Origin: Candidatus Omnitrophota bacterium
Lineage (GTDB): Bacteria > Omnitrophota > Gorgyraeia > Gygaellales > Profunditerraquicolaceae
Assembly: GCA_025453395.1 (NCBI GenBank)
Contig: JALOQK010000001.1
Location: 166,313 to 230,312 of the forward strand
DNA: 64,000 nucleotides
Direction: 5' to 3'
Part shown: piece after piece, positions 3,097 through 53,300 of the stretch
Numbering within the stretch: the first letter of the stretch is position 1
Layout: every line of letters begins with the position of its first letter
Made by a program: the position numbers and the translations under genes
Notes under the pieces: generated by a model
What the model saw: only the letters and a program-made list of their open reading frames with translations
The model's database searches: none
What the model was told of the DNA's origin: nothing

Positions 3097-4245
3097 TTAT
3101 TGAATAAACCTTTGCATGCGCGAAAGCGCCTCTTTTAAATTCTGATAGCTTGAAGCGTATGAAATACGAATATGATCTTCATACTCTTTTCCAAAGGCGC
3201 ATCCGGGTACAACCGCGACTTTTTCCTTTTCCAAAAGCCCTTTAGCAAAATCCATGGCCTTCATACCGGTACTTTTAATCGAAGGAAAAGCATAAAATGC
3301 CCCTTCGGGATTATGGCAGGATAAACCTATATCATTCAAGCCTTGTATTACAAGCTGTCTTCTTCTTTTATATTCGCGCTTCATTTCTTCCACAGATTTT
3401 CTTCCTGTAATTAAAGCCTCACATGCTGCCATCTGGGAAGTAATCGGAACGCACATAATCGTGTATTGATGGATTTTAGTCATGCCCGCAATAATATCTT
3501 TGGGTCCGCAGGCAAATCCCACCCGCCAACCGGTCATGGCATAGCTTTTGGAGAATCCATCCAGATAAACTGTATTTTCTTTTGCCCCCGGAAGCGTGGC
3601 AAATCTTACATGTTCAGAATCATAGGTTAAGTCGCCGTAAACCTCATCGGTAATGCAAAGTATTTTATGTTTTAACAAAACCTTATTTATCTCTGACAAT
3701 TCCTTACGCGAATATGAAGTGCCTGTTGGATTACAAGGGTAATTAAGGATTATCGCCTTGGTTTTTTTATCAATATGCTTCCTTATCGCACTTGGGGTAA
3801 TCCGGAAATTATCACTTTTTGTATCAATACAAACAGGTATTCCTCCTGCCAAATAAGTCATGGGAGCGTAAGAAACATAACTTGGGGTAGGAATCAATAT
3901 TTTGTCGCCCGGATTAATTATCGTTCTTAACACTAGATCTACAGCTTCGCTTACCCCTACAGTAATAAGCATCTCTTCATCCGGGCAATAATCAAGATCA
4001 TAGTGGTGTTTTAAATAACGATTGATACCCAGACGCAGTTTATACAAGCCCTTATTTGAGGTATAAGAGGTAAAACCTTTTTCAAGCGAATAAATGCCGG
4101 CCTCGCGGATGTTCCAGGGAGTGACAAAATCAGGTTCGCCTACCCCCAAAGAAATAACATCCTTCATTCCTAAGACAAGATCAAAAAATGCCCTGATCCC
4201 CGAAGGCTGCATTGCTTCAACTTTTTTAGAAATAAGATTCTTCAT
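3097..4245 (-). CDS. PLP-dependent aminotransferase class I/II (aspartate/aromatic aminotransferase-like)
   Basis: Contains NPTGT and SKSYAMTGWRVGF (PLP lysine motif). The start is placed at the internal MKNLISKKVEAMQPSGIR, because the 21 upstream codons of the 4308 ORF are encoded by intergenic repeat A. Confidence 0.8.
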   Translation of the reverse strand: MKNLISKKVEAMQPSGIRAFFDLVLGMKDVISLGVGEPDFVTPWNIREAGIYSLEKGFTSYTSNKGLYKLRLGINRYLKHHYDLDYCPDEEMLITVGVSEAVDLVLRTIINPGDKILIPTPSYVSYAPMTYLAGGIPVCIDTKSDNFRITPSAIRKHIDKKTKAIILNYPCNPTGTSYSRKELSEINKVLLKHKILCITDEVYGDLTYDSEHVRFATLPGAKENTVYLDGFSKSYAMTGWRVGFACGPKDIIAGMTKIHQYTIMCVPITSQMAACEALITGRKSVEEMKREYKRRRQLVIQGLNDIGLSCHNPEGAFYAFPSIKSTGMKAMDFAKGLLEKEKVAVVPGCAFGKEYEDHIRISYASSYQNLKEALSRMQRFIQ

Positions 4246-4257
4246 GTTCTGTATAAA

Positions 4258-4348
4258 TTTAGCTAAAAATTCAGAGCGAAAAACTAAAAACCATAATTCA
4301 AAACTCAAGATTTTTAATTTTACGCTATCGTTTTACGCTTTGCGCTAA
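4258..4348. repeat. Copy A of an ~90 bp MITE/REP-like intergenic element
   Basis: It shares ...gcgaaaaaCTAAAAAcc-ATAATTCAAAA-TTTTTAATTtTACGCTaTcGTTTTaCGCTTTgCGCT with the copies at 4851-4985, 7738-7832 and 41424-41527. It ends exactly at the Lrp stop codon. Confidence 0.6.
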
Positions 4349-11303: not shown

Positions 11304-11343
11304 GCCTCACCTCTCATTCTTTAATTTATAATTCTACCTTTAA

Positions 11344-13690: not shown

Positions 13691-15596
13691 GATTTTTCTT
13701 CAGGTGAACCATTAAAATAGAGATTGCAACCGGAGTAACCCCGGAAATACGCGAGGCATGCCCTAAATTCAAAGGCTTCAAATTAATAAGCTTCTCTTTT
13801 ATCTCACGCGAAAGCCCGTTAATTGCTTTATAATTTATTTCTTCCGGAATACGGATTTTTTCAAGGTGCTTGAAACGTTGCACCTGCGCAAGCTGCCGCT
13901 TAATAAAACCGCTATATTTTACCTCAATTTCCACTTCCCGCAAAGCAAAATCGGGAATTTCTGATATCTGCGGGGCAAAACTGCCCAAATCCTTAATCCC
14001 CACTTCCGGGCGCTTCAGGATATCTTCCAAAGACGTTGTTTTTTGCAAGCTTCTGGTGCCTAAACTTTCCAATATTTTGTTTATTTTATCTGCCGGCTTA
14101 ACGCGATGACGATTCAATAAATTTATCCCGCTTATTACAGCCTTCTCTTTGGCTTGTGTTTTATTATACTCTTTTTTGCTAACCAAACCCAAATCAAACC
14201 CATGTTTCCTAAGGCGCAAGTCCGCGTTATCCTCGCGGATAATAAGGCGGTATTCCACGCGCGAGGTAAACATCCGGTATGGCTCCTGGGTGCCCTTGAC
14301 CACCAAATCATCAATCAAAACCCCGATGTAACTGGTGCTTCTATCCAAAATAAACCTTTCTCTTTTTTGACAAGACAAACCGGCATTGATCCCGGCAATT
14401 AACCCAAGACTGGCAGCCTCTTCATAACCGGTAGTGCCGTTGATCTGCCCGGCTAAAAAAAGATTTTTAATGCGTTTGGTTTCAAGCGTAGGAAAAAGCT
14501 GTGTTGGAGAAACCACATCGTGCTCAATGCCATAGCCAAAACGCAATACCTTCGCCTCCTCTAAACCCTCTATCGCATGCAAAAACTTAAGCTGCACATC
14601 TTCAGGAAGGCTGGTAGATAAGCCATTAGGATAAATTTCATTGCCTGCTCTTGCTTGCGGCTCTAAAAATATCTGATGCCTGGCGCGCTCGGGAAAACGC
14701 ACGATCTTATCCTCTATTGACGGGCAATAACGCACGCCGGTAGATTTAATAATGCCGGCGTAAAGAGGAGAACGGTTAAGATTATCGGCAATAATTTTAT
14801 GCGCCTTTTGATTGGTATGGGTAATATGGCAGGCAAGCTGTTTTAGATTTATTTTAGAACTGGAAAATGAAAATGGGGCAGGCGGATTATCGCCTTCCTG
14901 GATGATGGTGCGGGAAAAATCTATTGTGTTTTTATCCAAACGCGGGCAAGTCCCGGTCTTAAAACGCAAAATATCAAATCCCAGGGCCTTAAGGTTGTTT
15001 GATAAATCTATTGCCGCCGGCTCATTGATCCTTCCGGCAGAATGATGCTCTAGGCCAATATGCACTATGCCATTTAAAAATGTGCCCGCAGCGATAACTA
15101 CGCAGGATGAATATAATTCTTCCTTGTCAGTTGTTTTAACCCCGCAAACCTTATCCGCTTGAATAATAAGAGAGGAAACTTGCGCTTCTTTTATTGCCAG
15201 GTTCTTCTGCTCTGATAAAAGCTTGCGCATATATTCATTATACGCGTACATGTCTATCTGGGCGCGGGATGACTGCGCTGCCGGGCCCTTTGAAGAATTC
15301 AATATTCTAAATTGTATCGCGCAAAAATCAGCAGCCTTTCCCATCACCCCGCCAAGCGCGTCTATTTCTTTTACAAGCTGGCCCTTGCCTACTCCTCCGA
15401 TAGCCGGGTTACAACTCATCAAGCCTATGTCCTTGGCGCTTAAAGTAATAATTAAAGTCTGGCATCCCATGCGCGCGCAGGCTATGCTCGCTTCAATGCC
15501 GGCGTGGCCGGCGCCGACGACAATCACATCAAAAAAACATGGGGACGGTTCTGTTTTCTTAAAAACAGAACCGTCCCCTTTATTTTTTTCCTTCAT
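13683..15596 (-). CDS. mnmG: tRNA uridine-5-carboxymethylaminomethyl modification enzyme MnmG (GidA)
   Basis: FAD motif DVIVVGAGHAGIEASIACARMG, MnmG length, and the C-terminal GidA-associated domain. The first ~18 codons are encoded by a palindromic repeat (see findings), so the start is uncertain. Confidence 0.9.
   Translation of the reverse strand: MKEKNKGDGSVFKKTEPSPCFFDVIVVGAGHAGIEASIACARMGCQTLIITLSAKDIGLMSCNPAIGGVGKGQLVKEIDALGGVMGKAADFCAIQFRILNSSKGPAAQSSRAQIDMYAYNEYMRKLLSEQKNLAIKEAQVSSLIIQADKVCGVKTTDKEELYSSCVVIAAGTFLNGIVHIGLEHHSAGRINEPAAIDLSNNLKALGFDILRFKTGTCPRLDKNTIDFSRTIIQEGDNPPAPFSFSSSKINLKQLACHITHTNQKAHKIIADNLNRSPLYAGIIKSTGVRYCPSIEDKIVRFPERARHQIFLEPQARAGNEIYPNGLSTSLPEDVQLKFLHAIEGLEEAKVLRFGYGIEHDVVSPTQLFPTLETKRIKNLFLAGQINGTTGYEEAASLGLIAGINAGLSCQKRERFILDRSTSYIGVLIDDLVVKGTQEPYRMFTSRVEYRLIIREDNADLRLRKHGFDLGLVSKKEYNKTQAKEKAVISGINLLNRHRVKPADKINKILESLGTRSLQKTTSLEDILKRPEVGIKDLGSFAPQISEIPDFALREVEIEVKYSGFIKRQLAQVQRFKHLEKIRIPEEINYKAINGLSREIKEKLINLKPLNLGHASRISGVTPVAISILMVHLKKNHG
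15541..15578. repeat. Palindromic hairpin element, copy 1 (GGGGACGGTTCTGTTTT-ctta-AAAACAGAACCGTCCCC)
   Basis: Perfect 17 bp stem. It is flanked by T7 on the minus strand and by TTTATTTTTTT on the plus strand, giving a terminator-like shape in both directions. It lies inside the 5' end of mnmG, 28 nt after the nrdJ stop. Confidence 0.7.
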
Positions 15597-33015: not shown

Positions 33016-34725
33016 TTAGTCCTTAGCTGTTACCCGATATACCTCTTCAAGGGTAGTAACCCCATTAAACACCTTTTCAAACCCGTCCTGACGCAAGGTA
33101 ATAAGCTTTCCGTTTTTTATCGCCTCATCCCTTACTTGCTCTAAAGGCACCTCTCTTATGACTTGGCTTTTAATATAATCGTCAACATTAAACGCTTCTA
33201 AAAGCGCGATCCTGCCCTTATATCCGGTATTTAAACAAGAATTGCATCCGCGGCCATGATAAAACTTTCCAGAACCTGTAACCTTAAGGCCCAATTCTTT
33301 GATCATAAATTCAGGAGCGTCAGTAAATTCCTCCTTGCAATTATCGCAGATCTTACGGCAGAGCCTCTGGGCGCAAACAAGAATAAGTGAAGACGCCACC
33401 AAATACCTCTCTACCCCCATATCAATAAGCCGGGCAAAGGCGCTTACTGAATCATTGGTATGAAGGGTGCTTAATATAAGTTGACCTATAAGCGAAGCCT
33501 TAATAGCGATATCCGCTGTTTCAGTATCGCGGATTTCTCCGATCATGATAATATCCGGGCTTTGCCTTAATACCCCGCGCAGCGCGGTGGCAAAGGTAAA
33601 ATCTATATCCGATCGTATATGCGTCTGGCCAATACCATCCAACTGATATTCAACCGGGTCCTCAATTGTAACCACATGGCGTTCCATAGTATTTAATTCT
33701 TTTAAAACCGAATAAAGCGTAGTAGATTTACCGCTTCCCGTGGGCCCGGTAATCAGGATCATCCCGTGGTCTTTAGACAAAGCTTCCTGCAAAAGCCTCA
33801 AAGACTGCTCTGAAAATCCCAGATCCGTTAAGCTGACCATTGCCTTAGCTTTATCCAGGATCCTTAAAACGAATTTTTCTCCGTAAATAGTGGGAAGCGA
33901 AGAAACACGGAAATCAATCTGTCTGCCATAGGCCACCAATGGGAACCTTCCGTCTTGAGGAAGATAAAATTTAGTAATATCAAGATTGGAAAGTATTTTT
34001 ATGCGCGCGGCAATGCCGCGTTGCACCTTTTTGGGCAGGCCATAAGCTTTGTGCATTATCCCGTCTATGCGGTAGCGCACAGTCAAATCTTCTTCTGTTG
34101 GTTCAAGATGTATATCTGACGCCCTCTGCTGAATAGCTTCGCCTATAATCCGGTTGACCGCCTCTACTATCGGGCCTTTCTGGCTTTCCTGAATAAGATC
34201 CGCGGAATCGCTATCATCCAATTCTTCAGTCCTTATGATCTGCATAGACTTTTCTTTTTCATCGTAAGCTAAAATTTCCGGAAGGCTTTGCAGCTGAGTG
34301 TAGAAATTATTAATGCAGTCATTGACCGCCTTTTCCTTAGCCAAAACCTGTTTTATTTCACACTTCAAAGAAAGGCGCAGGTTATCCAAAGTAATAATAT
34401 CCATGGGCTCCGCGATAGCCACAAGAAGGGTATCCCCTATCTTGTAAAGCGGCAGAAAAGAATATTTACGCACTATTTCTTCGGGAATAGAAGCTACAAG
34501 CCGCGGGTCAAGCTCATATTTGTAAGGATCAATAAAAGGCACATTCAAATGATACGCCACTAAAGAAAGAAGGTCTTCCTCATTAATAAAACCTTCAGAG
34601 ATAAGCACTTCTTTTATTTCCTTGCCGGTCTTTCTTTGAATAGAAATTGCCTTCTCTATATCTTCGGTGGTTATCTTATTGGCATCGGTTAAGATCTTGA
34701 TAAAATTTAATTTGGTTTTGCCCAT
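33016..34725 (-). CDS. pilB: Type IV pilus assembly ATPase PilB/GspE family
   Basis: T2SSE_N N-terminal domain, Walker A ILITGPTGSGKSTTLYS, a tetracysteine motif (CRKICDNC...GRGCNSC), and a 569 aa length that is PilB-like rather than PilT. Confidence 0.85.
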   Translation of the reverse strand: MGKTKLNFIKILTDANKITTEDIEKAISIQRKTGKEIKEVLISEGFINEEDLLSLVAYHLNVPFIDPYKYELDPRLVASIPEEIVRKYSFLPLYKIGDTLLVAIAEPMDIITLDNLRLSLKCEIKQVLAKEKAVNDCINNFYTQLQSLPEILAYDEKEKSMQIIRTEELDDSDSADLIQESQKGPIVEAVNRIIGEAIQQRASDIHLEPTEEDLTVRYRIDGIMHKAYGLPKKVQRGIAARIKILSNLDITKFYLPQDGRFPLVAYGRQIDFRVSSLPTIYGEKFVLRILDKAKAMVSLTDLGFSEQSLRLLQEALSKDHGMILITGPTGSGKSTTLYSVLKELNTMERHVVTIEDPVEYQLDGIGQTHIRSDIDFTFATALRGVLRQSPDIIMIGEIRDTETADIAIKASLIGQLILSTLHTNDSVSAFARLIDMGVERYLVASSLILVCAQRLCRKICDNCKEEFTDAPEFMIKELGLKVTGSGKFYHGRGCNSCLNTGYKGRIALLEAFNVDDYIKSQVIREVPLEQVRDEAIKNGKLITLRQDGFEKVFNGVTTLEEVYRVTAKD

Positions 34726-34730
34726 ATTTT

Positions 34731-36404
34731 CTAATCCGCAGGGGTTACCCGCAAGACCTCTTCTATAGTTATTATGCCGGCGCGGGCTAATTCCTGCGCC
34801 TCTTCCCTTAAAGTGCGCATGCCTTCCTTGCGGGCTATTTCTTTAATCACCTTCTCTTCAATATTCTTGCCCACGATAGCATCTTTAATCACGGCTGTTA
34901 GATGTAAAACCTCGGCCAATAAAATCCGCCCCTTATATCCTGTACCCATGCATTCTTTACAGCCTTTCCCGCGAAAATACGGCTGCGATGGAACAGGCTC
35001 TTTGCAATGTACGCAGATCCTGCGCGCTAATCTTTGTGAAACAATGGCGATCAATGAAGCGTTAATCAAGAATGACTCCACCCCCATATCCAACAGGCGC
35101 ACTACCGACCCGGCAGCAGTAGTAGTATGAAGCGTGCTTAAAACCAAATGCCCGGTTAACGCCGCTTTAATAGCGATATCTACAGTCTCAAAATCTCGGA
35201 TCTCGCCGATCATGATAATATCTGGGTCTTGCCTTAGAATAGAACGTAGGCAACGGCTAAAGTTCAGCCCAGTTTTGATATTAATAGACACCTGGTTAAT
35301 CCCTTTTAGCTGATATTCAACAGGATCTTCAACGGTAATAATATTTTTTTCTGGGGTATGCACATATTTTAATAAAGAATACAAAGTAGAGGTTTTGCCT
35401 GAACCTGTGGGCCCACAAACCAAAAGCATGCCGTGGGGCAATTGGGCGGCTTTTTTAAGCCCGGATATAACCGCATCTGTTAAGCCTAACTTATTTAAAT
35501 CCAATAACCCTAAAGATTTATCCAATATCCTGATCGCCACTTTCTCGCCCAATATCGTTGGGTATGATGAAACACGAAAATCAACTTCCTTGTCTTTTCT
35601 TCTAATCTTAAACTGGCCATCTTGAGGGAAACGGTGCTCCGCTATATCCAGATCCGATATGACCTTAATGCGCGACACAATAAAAGGATGAAAAGCCCGC
35701 GGCAGGCTTTCTATATGCCGGTATACCCCATCAATACGGAAACGTATCCTAGTTGCCCCTTCCAAAGGCTCAATCAACACATCGCTTGCCTTTGCGTCAA
35801 TAGCTTTATCCATAATAAAATTTGTCGCTTTAACAATGGGCATCTCCTGGGTAATCTGCGCCAGGTCTTGCGCGTCAAACTCACCTCTTGTCTTAATGGA
35901 AATATCCGAAAGGCTATCTCCTAAGATATCTTCCATTTCCATATTTGCTTCTTCGGGCTTATCTCCCAGCTGAACGCCGTAATAATGATGCAATAATTTA
36001 TCCATTTCAGCGCCAGCTATAACAACTGGATTGATTTTATGGCCTGATGCCTCTTGAATATCCTCTAAATCAACAACGGTGCTGAGATTTGCTATAGCTA
36101 AAAGAATCCCGTTTTCAGTCTTTATTAAGGGGAAAATACGGTATTTGCGCGCATTCTGCTCTGATACGAAACTTAATGTTTCGGCTCGGATAGTAAGCTG
36201 GGAAATGTCAAATTCGGGAACGGGGCAATTGGATTTGATAAAACCTTCAAGCTTCTGCTTATTGATCAGAATATCCTCTGTTAAAACCAGGCTTAAAGGC
36301 TTATTATTGGCAGCCTGCAGAGAAAAAACCTCGCCAACCTGGGAGGCCTTTAACAACCCATTCTGGGCGAGAAGCTGGATGATCTGACGCTTGGGATAAA
36401 TCAT
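34731..36404 (-). CDS. Second PilB/GspE family secretion ATPase paralog
   Basis: Walker A LLVCGPTGSGKTSTLYS, a tetracysteine motif (CVHCKEP...GKGCKEC) and an N-terminal T2SSE_N domain, 557 aa. Confidence 0.85.
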   Translation of the reverse strand: MIYPKRQIIQLLAQNGLLKASQVGEVFSLQAANNKPLSLVLTEDILINKQKLEGFIKSNCPVPEFDISQLTIRAETLSFVSEQNARKYRIFPLIKTENGILLAIANLSTVVDLEDIQEASGHKINPVVIAGAEMDKLLHHYYGVQLGDKPEEANMEMEDILGDSLSDISIKTRGEFDAQDLAQITQEMPIVKATNFIMDKAIDAKASDVLIEPLEGATRIRFRIDGVYRHIESLPRAFHPFIVSRIKVISDLDIAEHRFPQDGQFKIRRKDKEVDFRVSSYPTILGEKVAIRILDKSLGLLDLNKLGLTDAVISGLKKAAQLPHGMLLVCGPTGSGKTSTLYSLLKYVHTPEKNIITVEDPVEYQLKGINQVSINIKTGLNFSRCLRSILRQDPDIIMIGEIRDFETVDIAIKAALTGHLVLSTLHTTTAAGSVVRLLDMGVESFLINASLIAIVSQRLARRICVHCKEPVPSQPYFRGKGCKECMGTGYKGRILLAEVLHLTAVIKDAIVGKNIEEKVIKEIARKEGMRTLREEAQELARAGIITIEEVLRVTPAD

Positions 36405-36591: not shown

Positions 36592-37854
36592 TTACCTCTT
36601 TTTATTGGTCGAACTGGCTTCTTGAGGATTTTTCCAAAATTCCCTGATCACATAATAAGCCTGACGGGGAATCCTTTTATTTAAACCCTGCCCGCCGGCA
36701 GACTGTGCGCCTTCTGTTTCTTCGGACAATCCCACGATCCCAAACCATTCCTCATTCATATTCTTATTCCCGGGCGCCTGGTTATCAAAATAATAACTTC
36801 CGTTAGACCAGTTGGAACCGGTGTCATGAACTTTCCAGCTGCCGGGGTTAGATTCATTATTCTTCCACCATTCATCAGTCCATTCAAACATAAAACCGCC
36901 CAAACAATTTCCTTCTCCTTGGCTGCTGGAATAAAGATTGTTGTAGATCTGCCGCCACTGTGATTCCAAAAAGAATGCCTGCATCTGCTGGTCTTCTTTT
37001 TGGTTGTAGGCGTCATAACAATCTGCGCCAAACTCAGATAAGAATACCGGAAGGTCAAAAGTTGTCTTTAAAGAGCTAAAGAAATTACCGAAACTTTTCC
37101 CTCGGTAAATAATACAAGCAATAATATCAATGTCTTTACAAACCAAAGAAGCAGTATCAAGGCCAAACAATTCACCGTTTCCTAAGGCAACCGGATGGGC
37201 TGTGTCAATTTTCTTTATTTCCCGGGCTATATCATTAACATACGAATAATAAATCTTGGCGCGCATAGATTGCTGGGCACGGGGGTCTTTTTCATTGTCT
37301 ATTTCTTCTGTGGACCACGGGTTAACCCTGCCCAAACAGGAATAATTATTTTCGTTACCCAAGATCCAGCACAACACCCCGGGTTCATCTTTGTAAAGGC
37401 GCACCATTTCCAAGACTTCATTCTTTATTTTTTTCTGGAATTCTTGATTTCCGTAGAATGGACAGGGATAATTCCAAAACCCCAGCCAGCTTCCTAACGC
37501 GGTGCGAATACCAAATTTCTCATAGAGATCTCTTATGACAAGCCTGACTTTCTCCGGGTCTTCGCCTGATTCATACAAGCGCACTGCGTTAATGCCCATA
37601 TCCTGCATTAGTTTGCCGTCTACCAACCACGGCTTATGGGGGTCCTGATACCATTCATATTCATGGCCTTGCCCCACAGAAACAGGATTATAGCAAACCC
37701 CTTTGATAACAAATGGTTTTCCATCTACCATTAATTGATACCGGCTATTCGTTGATTTTTTTATATAAACAGAGGGCTTAGGCGCAGCAAAAGAAACACC
37801 AAAAGATACCGCCAAAAAGAACAGAAACAAGGGGACGGTTCTATTTTTCAGCAT
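36592..37854 (-). CDS. Secreted clan GH-A (TIM-barrel) glycoside hydrolase
   Basis: Signal peptide MLKNRTVPLFLFFLAVSFGVSFAAP. Catalytic blocks GINAVRLY, WILGNENNY (acid/base NE) and FLSEFGADCYD (nucleophile E). The ORF track extends it to 37929 through the hairpin repeat; the start is placed at the ATG in the hairpin loop (37854). Confidence 0.7.
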   Translation of the reverse strand: MLKNRTVPLFLFFLAVSFGVSFAAPKPSVYIKKSTNSRYQLMVDGKPFVIKGVCYNPVSVGQGHEYEWYQDPHKPWLVDGKLMQDMGINAVRLYESGEDPEKVRLVIRDLYEKFGIRTALGSWLGFWNYPCPFYGNQEFQKKIKNEVLEMVRLYKDEPGVLCWILGNENNYSCLGRVNPWSTEEIDNEKDPRAQQSMRAKIYYSYVNDIAREIKKIDTAHPVALGNGELFGLDTASLVCKDIDIIACIIYRGKSFGNFFSSLKTTFDLPVFLSEFGADCYDAYNQKEDQQMQAFFLESQWRQIYNNLYSSSQGEGNCLGGFMFEWTDEWWKNNESNPGSWKVHDTGSNWSNGSYYFDNQAPGNKNMNEEWFGIVGLSEETEGAQSAGGQGLNKRIPRQAYYVIREFWKNPQEASSTNKKR

Positions 37855-37900
37855 AAAAATAGAACCGTCCCCTTTATTCGAACCGTCCCCTTTATTCGAA
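37831..37900. repeat. Palindromic hairpin element, copy 2 (GGGGACGGTTCTATTTTT-cagcat-AAAAATAGAACCGTCCCC), plus a duplicated cgaaccgtcccctttatt tail
   Basis: Perfect 18 bp stem. The loop contains the probable GH start codon (the minus strand reads ...TATTTTTATGCTGAAAAATAGAACCGTCCCC). Confidence 0.7.
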
Positions 37901-37921
37901 TTCCGAATCCTAAATTCTGTT

Positions 37922-39100
37922 TTATTCATACTTTATTTCATCAAGAGAGAATACTACGCCGTCAGGATTAACATCAAGATTAGTCGCCCAGCAAAAACCT
38001 CCAATAATATAAGAAAGATCCTTTCCTTTCAAATCAATTGTGTACTGGGTCCATTCTTTATTTAATATAACTGGACCTATTCCGGAGCTATCAGAATCAG
38101 AGAATTCACCCATAATGCCTCCTAGCTTGAATTCTTCAATTCTTTCTCCGCCTTTTTCACCGCGCGCCCAGAAAGTAACTTTGACAGCTTTAGAAAGATC
38201 ATACCCGGCATCTACGCTTCCCCAGTTATTCGCTGGATTCTGCCAATAAGTCCCTGCCCAGCGCGAACCTTGAGTAGCTTTATTGTTATAGGTAATCTTA
38301 ATACAGGTATCGCCTAAATAGGGATCTTCTTTGCTGTTAGTATCGATCTTGATATCGCTGTAATCGCCCATCCATCCCGCTGGAATAAAATGATTCTTGG
38401 CTGACGAACGGTCTGAAAACACGTAAAAAGGCATAGCTTCCTGTTTTCTTCCCTCTGGCTTCAAAGTCGGGTCCATTTCAAATCTAATATCATCAATATA
38501 AAATGTAGCGCCGTTAGGATTGACATCAGCGTTAGTCACCCAGCCAAAACCTGCGCTTATATAAGAAAGGTCTTTGCCGGCTAAATTAATGCTGTATTCT
38601 TTCCATGCGTCAGTTAATTCCACAGGGCCCATCTCAACAGTAGCAGAATCAGGATATGTTCCTTTAATGCCTCCTAAAATAAACTTCTGGATAACTTCTC
38701 CGCCTTTTTCACCGCGCGCCCAGAAAACAATCTTGTTCATGCCGGTTAAATCAAAGCCGCCTTTTTTAGAACCCCAGTTATTCGCTGGATTCTGCCAATA
38801 AACCCCTACCCAGCCCTGGCCTTGGGATCTTTTCGCAGAATAAATAAATTTCAGGCAGCTTGCGCCAGAATGGGCATTGTTCATTTCCTGATCATTCATG
38901 ATCACATCACCCGTATCTCCCATCCAACCAGAAGGGATATAGTGGTTTTCTGGAGAACGCTTATCCGCATAAACACCAAACACCTTGTCCGTTGAGGCCA
39001 GCGCAGGCGCGGCAGCCGGCGCAGACTCTTCAGCAACAGCCACAGAGACTATCCCTACCAAGCCTAACACGGCAATTGCCATTAATGCCAATTTCTTCAT
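37922..39100 (-). CDS. Secreted protein with two tandem ~170 aa beta-rich domains (putative carbohydrate-binding modules)
   Basis: Signal peptide MKKLALMAIAVLGLVGIVSVAVA. There is an internal duplication: HYIPSGWMGD...YWQNPANNWGSKKGGFDLTGMNKIVFWARGEKGGEVIQKFILGGIKG versus HFIPAGWMGD...YWQNPANNWGSVDAGYDLSKAVKVTFWARGEKGGERIEEFKLGGIMG. Confidence 0.55.
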   Translation of the reverse strand: MKKLALMAIAVLGLVGIVSVAVAEESAPAAAPALASTDKVFGVYADKRSPENHYIPSGWMGDTGDVIMNDQEMNNAHSGASCLKFIYSAKRSQGQGWVGVYWQNPANNWGSKKGGFDLTGMNKIVFWARGEKGGEVIQKFILGGIKGTYPDSATVEMGPVELTDAWKEYSINLAGKDLSYISAGFGWVTNADVNPNGATFYIDDIRFEMDPTLKPEGRKQEAMPFYVFSDRSSAKNHFIPAGWMGDYSDIKIDTNSKEDPYLGDTCIKITYNNKATQGSRWAGTYWQNPANNWGSVDAGYDLSKAVKVTFWARGEKGGERIEEFKLGGIMGEFSDSDSSGIGPVILNKEWTQYTIDLKGKDLSYIIGGFCWATNLDVNPDGVVFSLDEIKYE

Positions 39101-39205: not shown

Positions 39206-41527
39206 CTACCTCCAAAGCTTTTGATATAAATAATAAGATTTGCGTAAATGCCTCAAGAATGGGCTATCTTTGCCTTGGCCTTGCGAACAAAGGCCAAACC
39301 ATTCTTCATAGTAATATCCGTCCGGAAACGGGCCTATAGCGATACCTTTAGTATCATGCAGGCTTGGCTCATAAGCCTTCCACCATTCATCCACCCACTC
39401 AAAAACTACTGCCCCGATAGAATTACCGGCGCCTTCTTGAAAAGCCATATTCATAGCGATATCTTCCCATGCTGCCTTATGGTAGTTAGCCTGAAGCTGT
39501 TCGCCTTCTTCTGGTAACCTGCCTTGAGAATAAGCAGGACAGCCGTATTCTGTGATAAATACCGGGACATCTGCTGCTTCTTTTACCTGCTTCCACAAAA
39601 ATCCAAAGCCATAATCCCCCCTGTAGGCATTAATGCCGAAAATGTCCACAGCTGGGGCGTTCTTAGAGAAACTATTTAAGTATAGCACATCTCCGTTGCA
39701 AATAGCAACCGGATGGGCTGTGTCAATAGATTTGATCATTTCCGCCGCCTGGTTGACAAAAGAAAAATAAGCGTCCGGCTCTTTGTCCGCGTTGCAAGCA
39801 TAACCATAGACATTTTCATTTCCCAAAAGCCAAAACAAAATATAAGGCTCATTTTTATATTCTTCCACCATTTTTCTCACAGATGCGAGCATATTCTTTT
39901 TATGCTCCGGGTTCTTGTAATCTGTCCCCGGATTCCAGGAGGCCCCTGAACCAATGGCATATTTACCCAAGAAATCCCCCATGATTACTCTTATGCCGTA
40001 TTTCTCATACATCTGGCGCAATATTTGTTTATCCGGCTGAAATGGCTGATGATATATCCTCATGGTATTTACGCCCATCATCTTCATCAGCCTAAAATCC
40101 CCAACTGAAGGCTCATTGGAATCTTGTTTGCCGTTATTATTACGGTCCACATAGGCGTCATACGGCCCATCAATCTTACCGTTTTTATTAAAATCACTCT
40201 TCATCCAATCACTCAATGTTTTGTCATCCGGGGATTCGCCTATCTTTGTGGGGGCATAAGTGATGCCTTTTATAATATAAGGCCTGCCATCAACTATCAT
40301 CTGCCAATCGCCGTTCTTATACTGGATAAGATGCACCTTGCCTTTACCGCGGCGCCTTTTAATGTTCAATAAATCATACGCCGGGCGAGGGGTAATCTTT
40401 TGCAGAAAGGTCACCTTTTCAAACTTGCCCGGGTTGGCAATCACAATGTCATTAGCAACACTATTATCATAACCATTTATTATCTTAATATCCAGGCCTG
40501 TAAGCCGATAGCCGATTTGAGGGTTGCTGCGCAAAAGAGAAATTACTTTACTTGCGGCGGCCTGCCCTATGTACCAAGGCGTATGCCAATAGGTCCAACC
40601 GTAACTGCCCGGAAAATGCACCACAATGGCGTAATAACATTTGATCGCCTGCTTGATTAACCCCGACTTTTCAAACATCAATCCTGTATAAAACAGTTTG
40701 GTGGCCGGCGATTCCGGAGCAGTAGCCCATTTTAAGAAAGCCGCCTCCAGGTCCGGAGAATGCACAAAATCCCAGTGGCTTCCCTCAAGCCGTTTCTCTT
40801 TAAGGGCCTTTTTATACTCCGGGTCCCAGCGCACAGAAGTAGTATTAGGATAAATGCCTTCGCCAACAGCCGCGCTTAATCCCTCTTGATCATTAATCAC
40901 ATATTTATAATCTTTTGTGCCCGCCCCAATAAATTGGCCATATTTAGCATAATCCACAAATTCTTCCCTGCCCGCGTCATAAAGGATTATTTTTGTGACC
41001 AACTGGCTGACTTGAGGTTTTTGCTCTTGCCCAATAACACCTGTATTGATTTTCTCAAGGCTCTTTTTACTGGCGTCAGCAATCTGCCAATACCATCCGC
41101 GCGGATCCCAGCTTTGCGCAAAAGAATATTTATCAATAATAAGCTGAAAGGTTTTCTTGGCATCCTCAATTTTATCCTGGCGCATATAACTTTCAGCCTG
41201 GATAAAATAGGCCACCGCCACATCATTTAGCGCCTGGACGGAAGCGATTTCTTTATCTTTAGGAAGGCTTGTTAATGACGCCTGCTCTTGGGCCGCTTCT
41301 TGCTTATATAACTGGATACACTGATTGGTATATTGGAAAGTCGCCTCTACATCATACTTACCATGCGCTTCCCAAGCTTTAGTAATTAATTCACTGGAAG
41401 ATGGCTTATCTTCTGCAAGCGCAAAATGTAAAGCGAAAAACGCAAAACCAAAACTTAAAACTAAAAGTTTTAAATTTTGAATTATAATTTTACGCTTTGC
41501 GCTTTTCGTTTTTCGCTGAAATTTCAT
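39206..41527 (-). CDS. Secreted multidomain clan GH-A glycoside hydrolase with a helical/TPR-like N-terminal region and a Ca-binding (dockerin/EF-hand-like) loop
   Basis: C-terminal TIM-barrel blocks GVNTMRIYHQ, WLLGNENVYGYACN and FITEYGCPAYS are homologous to the 36592 GH. It also carries DFNKNGKIDGPYDAYVDRNNNGKQDSNE, a DxNxNGxID-type repeat. The N-terminal 40 aa are encoded by repeat D and look like a signal peptide (KRK-LLVLSFGFAFFALHFALA-ED). Confidence 0.7.
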   Translation of the reverse strand: MKFQRKTKSAKRKIIIQNLKLLVLSFGFAFFALHFALAEDKPSSSELITKAWEAHGKYDVEATFQYTNQCIQLYKQEAAQEQASLTSLPKDKEIASVQALNDVAVAYFIQAESYMRQDKIEDAKKTFQLIIDKYSFAQSWDPRGWYWQIADASKKSLEKINTGVIGQEQKPQVSQLVTKIILYDAGREEFVDYAKYGQFIGAGTKDYKYVINDQEGLSAAVGEGIYPNTTSVRWDPEYKKALKEKRLEGSHWDFVHSPDLEAAFLKWATAPESPATKLFYTGLMFEKSGLIKQAIKCYYAIVVHFPGSYGWTYWHTPWYIGQAAASKVISLLRSNPQIGYRLTGLDIKIINGYDNSVANDIVIANPGKFEKVTFLQKITPRPAYDLLNIKRRRGKGKVHLIQYKNGDWQMIVDGRPYIIKGITYAPTKIGESPDDKTLSDWMKSDFNKNGKIDGPYDAYVDRNNNGKQDSNEPSVGDFRLMKMMGVNTMRIYHQPFQPDKQILRQMYEKYGIRVIMGDFLGKYAIGSGASWNPGTDYKNPEHKKNMLASVRKMVEEYKNEPYILFWLLGNENVYGYACNADKEPDAYFSFVNQAAEMIKSIDTAHPVAICNGDVLYLNSFSKNAPAVDIFGINAYRGDYGFGFLWKQVKEAADVPVFITEYGCPAYSQGRLPEEGEQLQANYHKAAWEDIAMNMAFQEGAGNSIGAVVFEWVDEWWKAYEPSLHDTKGIAIGPFPDGYYYEEWFGLCSQGQGKDSPFLRHLRKSYYLYQKLWR
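41424..41527. repeat. Copy D of the MITE/REP-like element
   Basis: gtaAAGCGAAAAAcgcaaaaccaaaacttaaaactaaaagttttaaattttgaATTATAATTTTACGCTTTGCGCTTTTCGTTTTTCGCTg. The terminal inverted repeats are conserved. Confidence 0.55.
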
Positions 41528-47329: not shown

Positions 47330-50300
47330 TTACAACCAAATCGCTGCCCTGCGCGGATAATTTCTATCTGCGTTGATTAACCAAAAATAATATTTATCAA
47401 AATCCATGTCGTGTTTATCTCTCGCAAAACGCACAAACCCGCCGCGGTTTAAGCCTCGCCTGGATATCAATTTCTGCCCGTCCCCGGGAGCGCCGTCGCG
47501 GTTGGAAAAAGCGTCTTTTTGGAAAACATCCTCATTGCGTGTACCTGTTCTCAACAAAATAAGATTCCTGTAGAATAATTCCTGCAGCAGGCTGACCGGA
47601 TGGGAAAAATACTTTCTTTGCGTAGTATCCGGGAATCCTTTCATAAAATATTCAGTAAGATATTTTATGGCGCTGCGCACTAAATCTTTACTCTGACTAC
47701 TTAGGTCAACCCGCCAAAAACAAACATCTAAAGATACGGTTTCTTCTTTTTCATTTTTCTTCTCAATAAATTCAATCCTGACTAAAAGTTCATTTTTAAG
47801 CCACGCCTCAAATATATTATTATGGAATTCTTTAATTTCTACTTTCGTTCCAGAAAATTCTATAACTTCAACGCGCTTAGGTAAAGTCATGCTATCTGAA
47901 TCTGTGTCGGGAGGCATAGCTCTATTCTTAGAGAAAATTGCCATCAGGCCAAGCGCTACTATAATTGTTAATAATACGGGTAAAAGGTAAGGTGGGAATG
48001 AAACAAATTGAGTATGCTGCACCGGCGCTCCGGTAGGCTGGGCTTGCGCCAGATACGCTCCAGCGGCAAAAAGGTCTTTCGCGCCTAAGGCAATAAACGC
48101 TGCGGTAAAAGGAATAAGCATATTACGGATAACCGGGCTACTGTTTGTCCCAAGCGCGCCGCCGATTTTTTTGTCCTGCGCCGGACTGCCGGATACCTCC
48201 TTAGAATTAAGTATCGTATCCCCGAAATCGAATTTCTTGCCTGTTTTATTCGCCTCAACAACGCTGGTAAAATATGGCCTAAATTGTTCGCACGAAGAAA
48301 AACGATAGCCTATCCTGTCTAAACTGATTATATGAGCAATCCCGGATGAACCCAGCATACGCAACATCGCGTTGGACATACCCATAAACAATGACTGATT
48401 TGCTTTCTGATAAATGTAATATTGATTTTTTGGCCGCGCGTGAAAATAAAAATCCGCGATATGATTAACTGACGGAAAAAGAAGAAATCTTTTTATATCT
48501 TCAAATATAATTTTGAGGCGCTTATCTGTATTCCCAATACTATCCTCAAAGGACCCGGCAATACCTCTTACTTTAGCATCTTTATCTTCGGCATAAACGC
48601 ATCCTTCAAAAAGAGAGTGGTCAAATGTCGGAGGGATATAAATACAATTACCGTCTTTGCCAGTAAGCATAATCCTATTAAGCTCTATAATTCTTTTTTT
48701 AAAGTCTAAAAAGTTAGTTAAGGCGCCGTTGTGTATTTCTTTTAATAACTGCACGAATTCTTCGCGCACCTGTTTTTGATTATGGAAATAATTTTTTTCG
48801 TTTTCTGATGCCGGGCCTGCGGCTTGCGCCTTACGATCGCACACTGCTTCATTCCAGGGAGCCTCTAAGGCGTTCTCCCAATCAAACTGCTTAATATTAT
48901 GTTTTCCTTGAAATAACTTCTGAAGGTAACGGAAGGCTTTTATCGCTAGGACAAATAGAAAAGGCACGGTCATCACCGGATACAGCGAGGCGCGCCCTAA
49001 ATGCGAATCCGGCGGGCCGGTAGACTGAGCTTGCGTCAGGTATGCGCCTGCGACAACCACCGCGCCAAGGCAAACTACACCAAGCATTGTGCAAACTTCT
49101 CCGAGGCCTTTTTTAGCGCCGCCGGGAGCGCCAACAAATTTGATATTCTGTTTTCCTTTTTCTGCCGCCTCATCCAATGCCCTCTTGGCAAAAAGCAAGG
49201 CGCTTTTATCAGTAGTGCCTTCTTTAAGCGCTTGCCGCAATAAATATAAAAGCCACGGCCAATCTTTAATCTTTACGACAAGCCCTATAATGCCAGATAA
49301 GGTTTTACCGTGTAGATCGCTGTGATAAATAATCATTTTCTTAACATATTCTTTACGGTCTAATTTGCCAAAAATCCTCTCCCATTCTTCAATCCTAAAA
49401 TCATCACCGCGGTTGTCTACAGTAACAGGTACAGGTTTTAAGCGTTTGGCAACCTTGAATTCATCCGTCTTCTGAATGGCGATTTGTTTAACCTCAACAA
49501 CTGCCTCATCTTGTTTTGCTTGAATCTTCAACCCAGACGGCGCGCCCACTGGCTCTTGCTGCGCTTTTTTTTCTTTTAATATAGCGTTAAACTCTTTTCT
49601 TAATATTATAAATTCGCCTCCGGTATTTTCTTTGCAGAGCTCAACGAGTAGGTCTCTTACTTTTTCTCTCCCCTGACTTAATTCTTTTCTTGAAGAGAAA
49701 TTACCCGCCTTAAACTTAAGTAAGGCTTCTTTTATCCGGGCGGACAGGCTTTCTATTTCAGGTGAAGTTTTACGCACCCCTGTCTCCGGTAAGGTTGCGA
49801 TTATGCCTTTTTTACGCAGTTCCTCCACAGGGTCAATACCGGCCTTACGCAAGCGCGCTAATATATTGGAAAAAGTAGAGGGGTGTTTTTTCATGTTCAT
49901 TTTATCCCGAATTTCCATAAGCGGGAATTTCTTACTTCCTTTATCTTTTGCTACTTCTTCGGCGGCTTTAATAAACTTAGCCAAAGAAACTTTACTCCCC
50001 CTTTCTGCGCTGCTTACGCCTTCTAAAATAACCCCCTTTTCTTTCTTCCATCGCCACAAGGTGCAATACTTAAAGCCTGCTAACTTAGCTAATTGCGTAA
50101 GCAATATTTTTTCACCGGGATGATTTTTCAGGAAATCTGCCGTAATTTGTTCTAATCGAGCTTTTCTATCTTCCCTGCCTTCTGCCCCGCTTCCATCGGC
50201 AAATAGATAACGAAATTTTCCGCCATAAAAAGGATGCCCGATTAGATTTTTATCTTGCGCCCCCAGATAATTCGGCCCCAGCCTGCCGCCAATTCCTAAA

Positions 50301-53300
50301 TCAGGGCCTGATTGAGAATAATGAGCTTTATCCCCGTTACATCCCTTCTCAATAGGATGGATAACCGCCTTGTAACACATCCTAAGCGGTAAATTTAATT
50401 CTAAATACCAAGATAGCGCCATAGAGTGGCCTTTGGACCTTCTCGGAAAGTATTTACCATAATAAAAAAATCCACTATTTGTTTTTAGCGATGGCATAAA
50501 TCTAAAGGTATTAATTCTGGGAGACATGCCCCATAGGGCATTAACAAAAGAATCCATAAGCTTACTGCCAATGCCATTTCTCTGGAAAGCTGGTAAAATA
50601 GCCAATTCTTGTAAATTGGCTATAGTTTCTTTATAAATAGAAAAACGGATAAACCCTACAATATCACCTTTTTCAACCGCCAAATAAACATAGTTATCTA
50701 ATAAGCGCTTTTTATACTCTTCTACTAAATGCTGCGCAGGATTAACTATTTTGGGTTTAGTCGCGGGATTAGAAAAAACTAATTTTTCTATACAGAGCAT
50801 CGCTCTTGCGGTTTTATCTAAGCGTTCAGGGCCGAGCTTAACGATATCCGCCGCGTTATAAATCCCGTCATCTAAATTAGCCCTTAATATACCGGCTTTT
50901 CTGACGACAGATGATTTATTAAGCAGATACTCGCCATAAGACAATATTGCAATGAATATAAATACGATAAGAAATGGCAATTTGCTTAGCCATGTATCAA
51001 GATGGTTAGCCGCCAAAAGCGCCGCAAGGCCGATGAACACAGGAGATTGTAAAACAACGCCTTCGCCGGAAGAAGGTGTTTGTTTACTCCCGGGCGCACC
51101 GCTGGGAAAATACTGGCGCCGCAACCCTCCTACTTGTTCTTGCGCTAATGTTTTCATTTGGGAATTACTTAAATTTGAAAAAGCGCCTTGCCCGAGAAAA
51201 CCCGCCTTACTATACTCATTAAGGAATCTGTATGTTATATATAATTTCCTTTCCGGGCTTGAGAATAACCAATAGAAAAATGTTAATAACGTACCCGGCC
51301 TGCCCTGATTAATCCTTTCAACAATCCCCTCGCAATACTCATCAGCAAATTTTAATATTCTCTGCGAGTCACTAATAAAACCCAAGAATAGAGGATCCTT
51401 TCTTAATCTGAAAATAATGCTCCCCCATTTTTCCTGAAGCGCGTTGCCGAAAACTAACGGGCTATGATCAACAAGATACATATCGGCAAAACTGACATCG
51501 CCGCGGTAATCAAAAGCTAATGTCGTACCCGGATAATAACGCTTCTTCGTTTCGCTAAGTTCGCATTGCTCAAAAACAGAATCAGGATACACATCTAAAG
51601 CTCTGCCAATCCTGCTTAACTGGCTTATCCTCAGCGCCCTTCTTATTACTTGTTCATTTTTTTCAACAAAACTGTGTTGCATTTGAAAACTAACTCCCAA
51701 ACCACGGCTTGATAGTTCCTGAAAGAAATTCCAAGTCGTCTGGCCAGAGGTTATATTGATTAATGTATTAATGATAATATCCGCTTCGGGGTAATACCGG
51801 ATAACTGCCTCCGCGAGGTTAGCTATCTTGATAAGCGAAATTGCCGGCCTCGCCAAATGGCTATCATCCAAAGAAATTCTAAAGGTAAACTTACTATCAC
51901 TACCTCTTGATTTCTTAATCATGAGCACAAATTCTCGCGCTTTTTCTGGAGTAACCATCAAAGAAGCATTGGTAGTTAACGAACAAACATTACGCTCAGC
52001 GATTATTTCATGGAGGTCTTTGCGTAAAGAAAGCTCTCCTCCGGAAATATACAAAGAGGGGTCCCTTATGCCCATGCCGCTGAAATCTGTCGCGCGGTAG
52101 AAATCCACCAAAACCATTTCTCTTTTCCTCCCGCTGTCGCAGGAAAACATACAGATATCGCAACCACTGTTACAGGTAAGCGAAAGAACACAAAGAATCC
52201 TTTTAGGAACCCAATTTGAATACGGATTAATTCGAATATCAAGGTTGGCGAACTGTTCTCTTCTTAAAAACTCTACCCGCTGTTGAAAACTATAATCTAA
52301 ATCAGAGATGTCTTCAATAACCTGCGACCCAAAAATCTCCCTGACTTTAGACGCCCCGCTCCCATCGGCAAACAGATAACGAAACTTTCCGCCATAAAAA
52401 GGATGCCCGATTAAATTTTTATCGCGCGCCCCCAGAAAATTCGGCCCCAGCCTGCCGCCAAAATCAATATCAATATCGGATAACGACGGCAGATGATGAA
52501 AAAGCGAACTCCCCGTCGCACCCAAACCCCGCCCGCCCGCGCCGCTGGCATTCGCCTTATTTACCGTTTCTAACCTCGTAGGTTGAATCGTTTGCTTCTT
52601 TATCTTTGGCCGCTCCGGGCTGCAGGCCGGCGAAGTGAGAGCGCCGCGATCAATATTACTATCTGCTAGGGACACTTCTGGCGAAAGTTGTTGCGGTGTT
52701 TTAGCTTTAGAGAAAACGGTCTGGTTAATTCGGTAAATTCTCCAGGGTTTAATATAAGATCTCCAATAGCTAAAGCAGGTATTCGGCATTATGTTGGCCG
52801 CCCATTCAATATCACGCGACAGATGAGGCTGTCTGGTCGTCTGTTCGCTGACAATAAGATATCCGCCGCGTAAAACCTGGATTTTGACCTTTTTCCAGAA
52901 ATAACTTTTTTTGGAAATACGCCCGGCCATCCCCGGCCCCTGAACATAAACAATCCCGTATTTGTTTTGATTTTGCATAAAATCATTAATCTGATATAAA
53001 ATCTTTATATTTTGTCTTCCCAAAAGTGCCCGCATCTTATCGTTTAATCCGATATTTATTTCCAATAAAGCAGGATCAATAACCTTAACGGCCATTTCCC
53101 CCAAGGCTTCCCCCACCCAGTTAAAATATTCGCTTAATTGTTTGATAATTCCCTGAATATCCTGCTTATCGGGAATACTCACAGACATTTCCTTCTGAAC
53201 AAAATTATCGTTAAAAATAAAACAGCGCGCCGAAGGAAACAAGTTCACCAAGGCCATAAAACTTACCGCGTCATGACCGGCGCAGGGATAATAAACATCC

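Follow-up and report, generated by a model that had tools for sequence, protein, structure and literature searches.

Where does translation of a gene begin when a potential start codon sits in the loop of a very stable hairpin, and what does such a hairpin do between two genes? The question is raised by a 64,000-nt stretch of a Candidatus Omnitrophota genome (GCA_025453395.1, contig JALOQK010000001.1, positions 166,313 to 230,312; hereafter the window), whose minus strand forms at 37874..37829 a perfect 20-bp stem with a 6-nt loop (AAGGGGACGGTTCTATTTTT / ATGCTG / AAAAATAGAACCGTCCCCTT) near the 5′ end of a glycoside hydrolase (GH) open reading frame (ORF; 36592..37929, minus strand). An original prediction made from this stretch had taken an ATG in the loop as the hydrolase start and proposed that the stem sequesters the ribosome-binding site (RBS) and the first codons, e.g. 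as a thermosensor, under helicase-dependent control or as an RNase target. The perfect hairpin with an in-frame ATG in its loop was confirmed, the stem being 20 bp rather than 18 bp as counted there. Likewise correct were its designation as copy 2 of an element, copy 1 being located at 15539-15580, and the direct duplication beside it, which is exact over 18 nt.

The enzyme belongs to the TIM-barrel hydrolases, with GH2 and GH158 as distant relatives. Read from the loop ATG (37852..37854, minus strand, in the GH frame), it measures 420 aa; this start is used in the NCBI annotation and in the 420-aa entry P0001 (MLKNRTVPLFLFF...) from a Candidatus Omnitrophica metagenome-assembled genome, which is 100% identical to the window protein. 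An upstream in-frame ATG (37927..37929, minus strand), the probable GH start, overlaps the stop codon of the preceding gene (ATGAATAA) and opens a longer ORF of 445 aa (MNKTEFRIRNSNKGDGSNKGDGSIFMLKNRTVP...), 25 codons more than the loop-ATG form. From ATG 37929 the frame is open through the 18-nt duplication and the hairpin, and translation from there would include the N-terminal peptide MNKTEFRIRNSNK.... The preceding gene (37922..39100, minus strand), whose stop precedes the hairpin, encodes a conserved secreted protein of 392 aa with two internal repeats. As this protein found no match in Pfam, NCBIfam or PDB, the label 'CBM' (carbohydrate-binding module) was dropped.

Orthologous Omnitrophota loci gathered at the DNA level (84 in total) allowed the reading of the junction to be compared. 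The upstream gene lies directly 5′ of the hydrolase gene in 81 of them, yielding 76 distinct junctions, and the C-terminal 110 aa of its product are mostly 74-87% identical across Omnitrophota (median ~82%) vs. ~65% for the hydrolase. Measured between the upstream stop and the mature hydrolase, junction length equals 1 mod 3 in 68 of the 76 cases (chi-square p ~4e-24), over 31 distinct lengths from 88 to 262 nt; the junctions form 72 sequence clusters. Free of stop codons in the hydrolase frame were 57 of the 76, compared to 7.4 ± 2.5 in shuffled junctions and to 8 and 4 in the other two frames. In 54 junctions the frame is open back into the upstream gene; 22 have a separate downstream hydrolase start.

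Of the 54 open-frame loci, 49 keep an ATG within the final codons of the upstream gene (GAT-GAR of ...L-D-E...), and four loci with GAC all have CTT-GAC, providing an in-frame TTG one codon earlier. The GAT:GAC ratio is 15:7 in loci with their own downstream hydrolase start (Fisher p = 0.012). No other in-frame ATG, GTG or TTG was found before the hydrophobic core in 36 of the 54. Inspection of the N-termini of 120 homologs revealed many with ...RDGS...RTVP directly before the hydrophobic core, i.e. the translated arms GGGACGGTTC and GAACCGTCCC, and about half beginning with ...IWM(K/R)LSTNK, the +1-frame reading of the upstream C-terminus ...LDEIKYE*. Because of the 1 mod 3 lengths, the depletion of stops, the retained or compensated start and the lack of an alternative start in 36/54 loci, we conclude from these sequence comparisons that the junction, hairpin included, is normally coding in the hydrolase family, with predicted initiation within the last codons of the upstream gene. 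That the 25 upstream codons, described as repeat-derived in the original prediction, would be spurious is not supported by the orthologous junctions, which code in the hydrolase frame.

In the window, the family's conserved ATG is shut by a TAA two codons on (ATG AAA TAA), and the next in-frame codon after that TAA, ACG in most relatives, is ATG 37929. We infer that the hydrolase in this genome starts at ATG 37929, the loop ATG being present as well. The comparison of orthologous GH genes, which the original prediction had suggested as a check, found junctions that read through the hairpin from starts lying upstream; it favors translation from 37929, the outcome named there as speaking against a loop start. 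Since junction palindromes are taken as non-coding by gene callers and readers alike, the annotated hydrolase start is likely wrong, and the same probably applies to many Omnitrophota genes.

Across the junctions, the structure was kept and the sequence replaced. A strong stem-loop occurs in all 76 distinct junctions (best −19 to −60 kcal/mol, median −40), beginning at a median of 7 nt after the upstream stop; the median folding z-score of the junctions is −5.9, with values below −2 in 75/76. The exact GGGACGGTTC/GAACCGTCCC pair is found in 15 of 81 junctions (13 of the 76 distinct ones), where the proteins are only ~65% identical. Other junctions contain unrelated arms, e.g. CTACAGGTCGCAAG/CTTGCGGCCTGTAG decoded as TTGRK...LAACS, or tandem heptamers. 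To avoid sense-strand selection of hairpins, strand asymmetry was assessed on whole junctions against composition-matched shuffles: the sense strand folds better than the antisense strand (median excess −2.1 kcal/mol, p = 6e-5). Hairpins lacking the core show this sense-strand excess in 48 of 63 cases (p = 3e-6), and G.U pairs in junction hairpins number 245 on the sense vs. 69 on the antisense strand.

As the hairpin is present both in the 54 read-through loci and in the 22 loci with a downstream hydrolase start, its role appears independent of the start codon and linked to the upstream gene's 3′ end. In loci with a separate downstream start, it lies well upstream and covers neither RBS nor start. 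The 22 junctions with a non-coding tail have hairpin tails that are not U-rich (median 3.5 T in 12), weakening a canonical terminator as the conserved junction function. Because strong hairpins occur in 76/76 junctions across unrelated sequence families, with mRNA-strand selection in the non-core ones, the junction slot would seem to be under selection even though its occupant is replaceable.

In many junctions the arms consist of short tandem units (L192/L209, L166, L158/L193, L174, L175, L203, L215). For instance, (GGCTACA)4 is paired with (TGTGGCT)4, with two G.U pairs per unit and an equal number of units in both arms. This equality suggests mirrored expansion by slippage or template switching, plus selection on the mRNA strand.

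Within the window, copy 2 is a palindromic element (minus strand) composed of a G-arm (AAGGGGACGGTTCTATTTTT, 37874..37855), the ATGCTG loop (37854..37849) and a C-arm (AAAAATAGAACCGTCCCCTT, 37848..37829). Folded alone, it reaches −31.4 kcal/mol (z = −9.95), a stability equaled by 0 of 200 shuffles; the stem is Watson–Crick throughout, contains no G.U pairs and is equally stable on both strands. Its translation in the GH frame is K-G-D-G-S-I-F-M-L-K-N-R-T-V-P-L. The 18-nt direct duplication (37880-37897, minus strand, identical to 37862-37879) represents an extra tandem half-copy with a second G-arm unit, GAATAAAGGGGACGGTTC, and adds six codons with the frame preserved. Right after the C-arm follows a T-rich tail (37783..37830, minus strand) that encodes the signal peptide's hydrophobic core together with its cleavage region (LFLFFLAVSFGVSFAA).

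The 11-mer GGGGACGGTTC has five exact occurrences in the 64-kb window and seven matches within one mismatch vs. 0.25 expected, a count reached by 0 of 100 shuffles, and copies 1 and 2 are by far the longest hairpins of the window. Shuffled folds, 11-mer counts and this comparison of hairpin lengths exclude a chance origin. A strong hairpin after the stop is not the rule in the window: the median is −10.7 kcal/mol for 39 gene ends vs. −13.7 in controls within coding sequences, and only the two GGGGACGG junctions stand out for hairpin strength, so that post-stop hairpins as the normal terminators of this genome were rejected. Both copies score as terminator-like and are the strongest such sites locally, copy 1 on both strands; both have a G/C-rich stem base, a 5′ A-tract and a 3′ T-tract. 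Promoter-like matches occurred at shuffle expectation, none of them between the hairpin and the GH coding sequence, and the downstream ORFs overlap or abut copies 1 and 2, leaving no space for a promoter. At the gathering threshold, neither the window nor 18 loci from other phyla had any Rfam match. A resemblance of GGGGACGGTTCGAAT to a tRNA T-loop or the tmRNA 5′ end was judged coincidental.

More generally, the window hairpin belongs to a dispersed family of palindromes with the core GGGGACGGTTCY paired with RGAACCGTCCCC, of which the window holds two copies in 64 kb. Scanning species-representative genomes for the paired arms yielded at least 120 loci, and the matches listed stem from Bacillota, Actinomycetota, Bacteroidota, Cyanobacteria, Elusimicrobiota, Atribacterota, Omnitrophota and others. 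Among these listed matches, palindromes reach 20-30 bp, the core orientation is GACG...CGTC in all of them, the base before the core (−1) is G in 76% and the base at +10 is Y (T or C) in 93%. Also among them, ~10% carry extra tandem G-arm half-copies, as does the window, and copies are located 5-25 nt after stop codons in co-directional or convergent contexts, rarely between divergent genes. Each arm is itself a small palindrome about the core (longest complementary run 5.40 vs. 3.57 ± 0.11 in permutations), with lineage-specific flanks. In the long junction variants, two short units (G-arm, ~13 nt, C-arm) follow each other in tandem and can refold as one nested hairpin.

In viral contigs, the real core was compared with four decoy cores that were composition-matched or near-identical: it occurred at 16 loci in 27 copies, some contigs being multi-copy, vs. 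5, 1, 3 and 2 loci for the decoys, all single-copy. The decoys, the extended consensus and the arm palindromes partly reject the view that the cross-phylum matches are random terminator stems from a huge database. Several contigs contain 3-5 copies in 6-13 kb. Dense arrays were noted in L129 (five copies in 6.1 kb), L133 (four in 13.4 kb), L137 (three in 8.3 kb) and, in the cultured Bacillaceae Rossellomorea vietnamensis, L068 (four in 8 kb); in such arrays, in viral-classed contigs and R. vietnamensis, flanks are lineage-specific (GGAAC.., GAAGCA..) and a copy sits at nearly every gene junction. When 3,558 ORFs taken from 136 loci were clustered all against all, no recurrent specific neighbor family or transposase emerged, the largest clusters being generic families present in 10-11 of the 136 loci each. 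In the searchable literature, the core strings GGGACGGTTC / GAACCGTCCC returned only unrelated eukaryotic primers, and nothing specific was found there on Omnitrophota and palindromic repeats.

Copy 1 (GGGGACGGTTCTGTTTTT / AAGA / AAAACAGAACCGTCCCC; 15539..15580, minus strand) has a perfect 17-bp stem (19 bp with one mismatch), a 4-nt loop and a folding energy of −30.9 kcal/mol, with T-runs flanking it on both strands. It lies 27 nt after the nrdJ stop, within the 5′ end of the longest mnmG ORF. This 637-aa ORF starts at an ATG 9 nt after the nrdJ stop (15594..15596, minus strand) and reads through copy 1 (MKEKNKGDGSVFKKTEPSPCFF-DVIVVGAGHAG), with the Pfam GIDA domain beginning at residue 23. 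Omnitrophota MnmG proteins usually begin ~4 residues before DVIVIG. Directly after copy 1 stands ATG-T7-GAT-GTG (15525..15540, minus strand), whose ATG is off frame by one T, and the in-frame GTG (15527..15525) is the only alternative mnmG start. Six T instead of seven would place the ATG in frame and give MFFDVIVVG (MFFDVIVVGAGHAG), a typical MnmG N-terminus. The T7 run could reflect a homopolymer assembly error, a frameshift rescued by ATG 15596, or a 3-codon mini-ORF (MFF*), which would end 1 nt before the in-frame GTG. The neighboring NrdJ, a B12-dependent ribonucleotide reductase of 1174 aa (15606-19130), contains an intein-like insertion at about residues 270-680; this region is matched by intein-containing NCBIfam models and the NrdJ match is split.

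Other loci likewise combine hairpins with gene starts. At the nrdJ-mnmG junction of L232, an unrelated 16-bp hairpin lies 7 nt after the stop. In L233 (2501-2600), a ~48-nt hairpin is inserted in frame in the mnmG N-terminus, MNNFD-[16 aa]-VMVIG(AGHAG), an insert resembling a Rickettsia palindromic element (RPE) in that an in-frame palindrome lies within a housekeeping enzyme. L235 has a 34-aa hairpin-encoding mnmG extension downstream of a gene for a radical SAM enzyme rather than nrdJ, and no hairpin was found at the mnmG junction of L234. The same element as in the window lies within a different gene in L159 (3761-3815), where a GGAAGG Shine-Dalgarno (SD) sequence and an ATG are located 22 nt upstream of the hairpin. 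Its arms are in the same frame as in the window (GDGSIF...KNRTVP), followed by FILLFMLFVLRFSYA/QD to make up a signal peptide; the L159 element thereby forms a signal-peptide n-region with SD and ATG upstream of the hairpin.

On balance, we favor the hairpin as a REP-like (repetitive extragenic palindromic) intercistronic mRNA hairpin at the 3′ end of the upstream gene, probably overprinted by the 5′ coding region of the hydrolase. Building on its structure, conservation, placement and coding status, the gene array would be co-transcribed and the hairpin would form right after the upstream gene. The hydrolase would be initiated at ATG 37929 by ribosomes terminating on the upstream gene (termination-reinitiation), which would unwind the stem. 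A-rich flank, arms and T-rich tail would then supply the signal peptide with its n- and h-regions (...KGDGSIF-ML-KNRTVP plus LFLFFLAVSF). When untranslated and folded, the hairpin would delimit the upstream message: it could block 3′ exonucleases, serve as a processing site or terminate transcription weakly, and each of the three activities may cause the conserved upstream protein to be made in excess over the enzyme.

Several observations weigh against this interpretation. The family's conserved ATG is closed by TAA in precisely this window; ATG 37929 stems from a synonymous TAC → TAT change and could be due to chance; and the loop ATG begins a signal peptide of textbook length, so that its use here has some plausibility. 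The 13 GGGACGGTTC-type junction hairpins lack strand asymmetry; for this type, an RNA-level role is argued from position, and a DNA-level or selfish nature would fit equally well. T-rich runs follow both window copies, whose terminator-like scores make partial termination possible. Because there is no room for own promoters, an efficient terminator would silence the downstream genes, which constrains rather than tests the favored model.

The loop-ATG model, in which RBS and first codons are sequestered by the stem in a riboregulator of the thermosensor, helicase or RNase type, appears improbable. It can draw on the in-frame loop ATG with its signal peptide of canonical length (MLKNRTVPLFLFFLAVSFGVSFA), on the NCBI annotation, on L001, where an in-frame TTG lies within the loop of the same element, and on the ATG abutting the 3′ arm of copy 1, though that one is out of frame by one T. 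It conflicts with orthologous junctions that code upstream of and through the hairpin, with 36/54 open-frame orthologs that have no start codon in or after the hairpin, and with orthologs whose downstream RBS and start lie outside the hairpin and are left free by it. Neither is an SD present at a usable distance (5-9 nt): GGGGACGG, proposed in that function, is a weak candidate that ends 13 nt before the ATG, inside the stem. A perfect −31 kcal/mol stem moreover far exceeds known RNA thermometers and would nearly abolish 30S binding; on thermodynamic grounds attributed to de Smit and van Duin, a start enclosed by a stem of this stability is essentially unusable for de novo 30S binding. The element also follows genes in many phyla regardless of start codons. 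What stands of the original prediction is an RNA-level role, plausible given the hairpins in 76/76 junctions and the sense-strand bias of the non-core ones, with an RNase target as one option; a riboregulator that sequesters RBS and start is not supported. We also regard as unlikely a translation-gated intrinsic terminator (attenuator), which would stop transcription unless a re-initiated ribosome translates through, coupling transcription of the hydrolase gene to its own translation. The terminator-like scores of both copies, their A-tract, stem base and T-tract, the start codon upstream of the hairpin in most orthologs and a spacing of ~7 nt between stop and hairpin, covered by the terminating ribosome, would suit such a device. 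The 22 non-coding orthologous tails, which are not U-rich, would not; stems of 25-40 bp and −40 kcal/mol are atypical of intrinsic terminators, the T-tract of the window is accounted for by Phe and Leu codons of the signal peptide, and hairpins persist where the hydrolase start is downstream, so that translation cannot gate.

Quite unlikely, in our estimation, is a functionless palindrome, i.e. a GGGGACGGTTC copy inserted in the manner of a REP or a miniature inverted-repeat transposable element (MITE), or produced by template switching, and tolerated in N-termini. Signal-peptide n-regions and the MnmG N-terminus accept almost any stop-free sequence, in-frame palindromic insertions are known elsewhere (RPEs and intragenic REPs; PMC3733652), and the family is dispersed and multi-copy across phyla. 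The perfect Watson–Crick arms without G.U pairs or strand asymmetry would be expected of it too, and tandem half-copies and arms of short tandem units suggest slippage or template switching. Yet neutrality sits poorly with strong hairpins in 76/76 orthologs across unrelated families, some with mRNA-strand selection, and with a core kept exact in 15/81 junctions (13/76 distinct) despite ~65% protein identity; nor was a transposase or target-site duplication found. Finally, a recoding stimulator driving a +1 frameshift or readthrough that fuses the upstream protein to the hydrolase is highly improbable. The hydrolase is +1 relative to the upstream gene in 68/76 loci and the spacing of hairpin and stop resembles that of recoding stimulators, but no slippery or shift-prone site exists at ...TAC GAA TAA, an in-frame ATG or TTG is conserved in the overlap, with compensation, and 22/76 loci have a separate start, some in other frames. 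Moreover, the product has its own signal peptide or lipobox just past the junction, which would be meaningless anywhere but at an N-terminus. The absent shift site, the conserved start codon and the hydrolase's own signal peptide led us to reject the +1 fusion.

Taken jointly, these data would allow a broader reading, conceivable if rather speculative, in which Omnitrophota routinely decode stable mRNA hairpins in the first ~35 codons of genes that follow another gene, the palindrome serving as proto-signal peptide and translation-gated divider, and the core defining a third 'tagged' REP super-family recognized by a widely conserved factor. Since the reverse complement of a codon with T in the middle has A in the middle, a translated A-tract/stem/T-tract would yield a charged n-region followed by a hydrophobic h-region. 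The 3-nt length ladder, the depletion of stops and the start compensation provide unusually clean comparative evidence for a decoded N-terminal REP-like palindrome, a matter usually left open. With one junction keeping a strong hairpin in 76/76 cases as the sequence family turns over, the locus offers a good natural system for studying the roles of intercistronic hairpins in the compact genomes of an uncultivated phylum. The concept of 'tagged' REP super-families is widened by a core that is conserved between lineage-specific flanks, and a putative factor recognizing this core is suggested.

The window contains further repeats and genes. A second, unrelated AT-rich palindromic family of ~91 nt is present at 4259-4349, 4885-4975 and 7739-7829 (77-86% identical), each copy having AATTCAAAATT...AATTTTTAATT as its central palindrome and lying at a junction of minus-strand genes, the first overlapping the TTG start of ORF 3097..4308. 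Another junction hairpin in an ORF 5′ end (41449-41479; 14 bp with one mismatch, 3-nt loop) falls in the predicted signal-peptide region (..KRKIIIQNLKLLVLSFGF..) of ORF 39206..41527, which encodes a 773-aa protein with tetratricopeptide repeats (TPR) and a GH part and starts 16 nt after a gene for an MFS transporter. G-rich intergenic tracts on the minus strand (10300-10430 and 11304-11343; GGGTTATGGGTCTGGGGTGGGGGTGAGTTGCGGGTTTAGGGTAGGGGGG...), followed by tandem GCTGATA/GCTGACA repeats, stand out in this 42% GC genome and could represent G-quadruplexes or a repeat family. Directly downstream of the hydrolase cluster, at 33016-36404, two adjacent genes were assigned by sequence motifs to PilB/GspE-type secretion ATPases (569 and 557 aa), and a giant minus-strand ORF of 5544 aa (47330-63964) extends almost to the window end.

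How does the element compare with known systems? In RNA thermometers (ROSE, fourU), the SD or AUG is itself paired, in a weak stem with imperfections that opens near 37-42 °C. The window hairpin shares with them, and with RBS riboregulators, a stem enclosing a potential start codon, but differs in its perfect 20-bp stem of −31 kcal/mol, the placement of the ATG in the loop, the lack of a usable SD and the upstream initiation in orthologs. Rho-independent, including bidirectional, terminators are resembled in the G/C-rich base, the 5′ A-tract and 3′ T-tract and the terminator-like scores of both copies. In contrast to intrinsic terminators, the stems are far longer and more stable, the orthologous non-coding tails are not U-rich, and the hairpin does not lie at the end of a transcription unit, given a downstream gene without promoter space. 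A MITE with target-site duplication was dismissed, as the flanks are inverted rather than direct repeats and neither an autonomous parent nor a transposase was found.

In operons, the malE-malF REP reportedly acts as an mRNA stabilizer (attributed to Newbury et al., 1987), and a REP within ≤15 nt of a stop codon is said to stall termination and trigger trans-translation (attributed to Liang, Rudd and Deutscher, 2015). The junction described here resembles REP-mediated differential expression in its hairpin right after the stop (median 7 nt), before a less needed downstream gene, and, by analogy, in a presumably abundant upstream product from the same transcript. It differs in that the downstream ORF there does not read through the REP.

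Palindromic elements inserted in frame in protein-coding genes of Rickettsia (RPE-1, RPE-4/6) were reportedly described by Ogata et al. in 2000. RPEs have been summarized as translated palindromic repeats in ORFs, with N-terminal RPE-1 decorations reported as expressed (PMC3733652). Like these, the present element is a palindromic repeat in an ORF, stop-free, in frame, apparently translated and tolerated as a peptide. RPEs, however, are found across the ORF bodies of an intracellular alpha-proteobacterium, whereas the elements here lie at junctions directly after an upstream stop, and their decoded arms and tail would serve as signal-peptide n- and h-regions.

The closest relatives are REP elements and their dimers (REP doublets forming hairpins, REPINs, or bacterial interspersed mosaic elements, BIMEs; Bertels and Rainey 2011, PMC3116915), among them the super-families tagged GTAG or CGTC (Di Nocera et al. 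2013, PMC3733652). Tagged REPs combine a short conserved tag with variable stems, occur in several phyla and as head-to-head dimers fold into larger hairpins; the ORF upstream ends <20 bp before them, and most are flanked by unidirectional or convergent genes (PMC3733652). Some are intragenic, and many of these sit at the N-terminus of an ORF, where their coding status is uncertain; no dedicated transposase accompanies the CGTC type (PMC3733652). In line with this, the unit here is a short palindrome, two inverted units of which form a larger hairpin, and post-stop positions, co-directional or convergent contexts, lineage-variable stems and N-terminal units inside ORFs recur. Location matches in part: the cross-phylum copies lie 5-25 nt after stops, but the window copies and that of L159 are inside ORF 5′ ends and apparently translated.

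The differences concern sequence, number and context. The conserved part is an 11-12-nt core rather than an unpaired 4-nt tag ending an 8-9-bp stem, and the copy number is two within the 64 kb covered, REPs or REPINs numbering tens to hundreds per whole genome. A REP-associated tyrosine transposase (RAYT, an IS200/IS605-type Y1 transposase), as known for REPINs, did not recur beside the elements within the 136 loci, the scope being these loci only. Omnitrophota and most phyla matched here are outside the taxa listed for tagged REPs in PMC3733652. With CGTC-tagged REPs in particular, the element shares GACG/CGTC in its core, head-to-head dimers, the lack of an associated transposase and intragenic N-terminal copies. 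Its CGTC, however, lies inside the C-arm (GAAC-CGTC-CCC), followed by CCC(C) and lineage-specific sequence, and the defining geometry of CGTC-REPs (unpaired CGTC/TGTC/CCTC tag, 8-9-bp AT-initiated stem, 4-5-nt loop, CCA tail) was not found, for which reason we did not file it as a CGTC-REP. As a REP-like junction palindrome, the element would be of a known kind; what appears new is the comparative evidence for the coding status of an N-terminal copy, by which it differs from tagged REPs, and a core shared across phyla.

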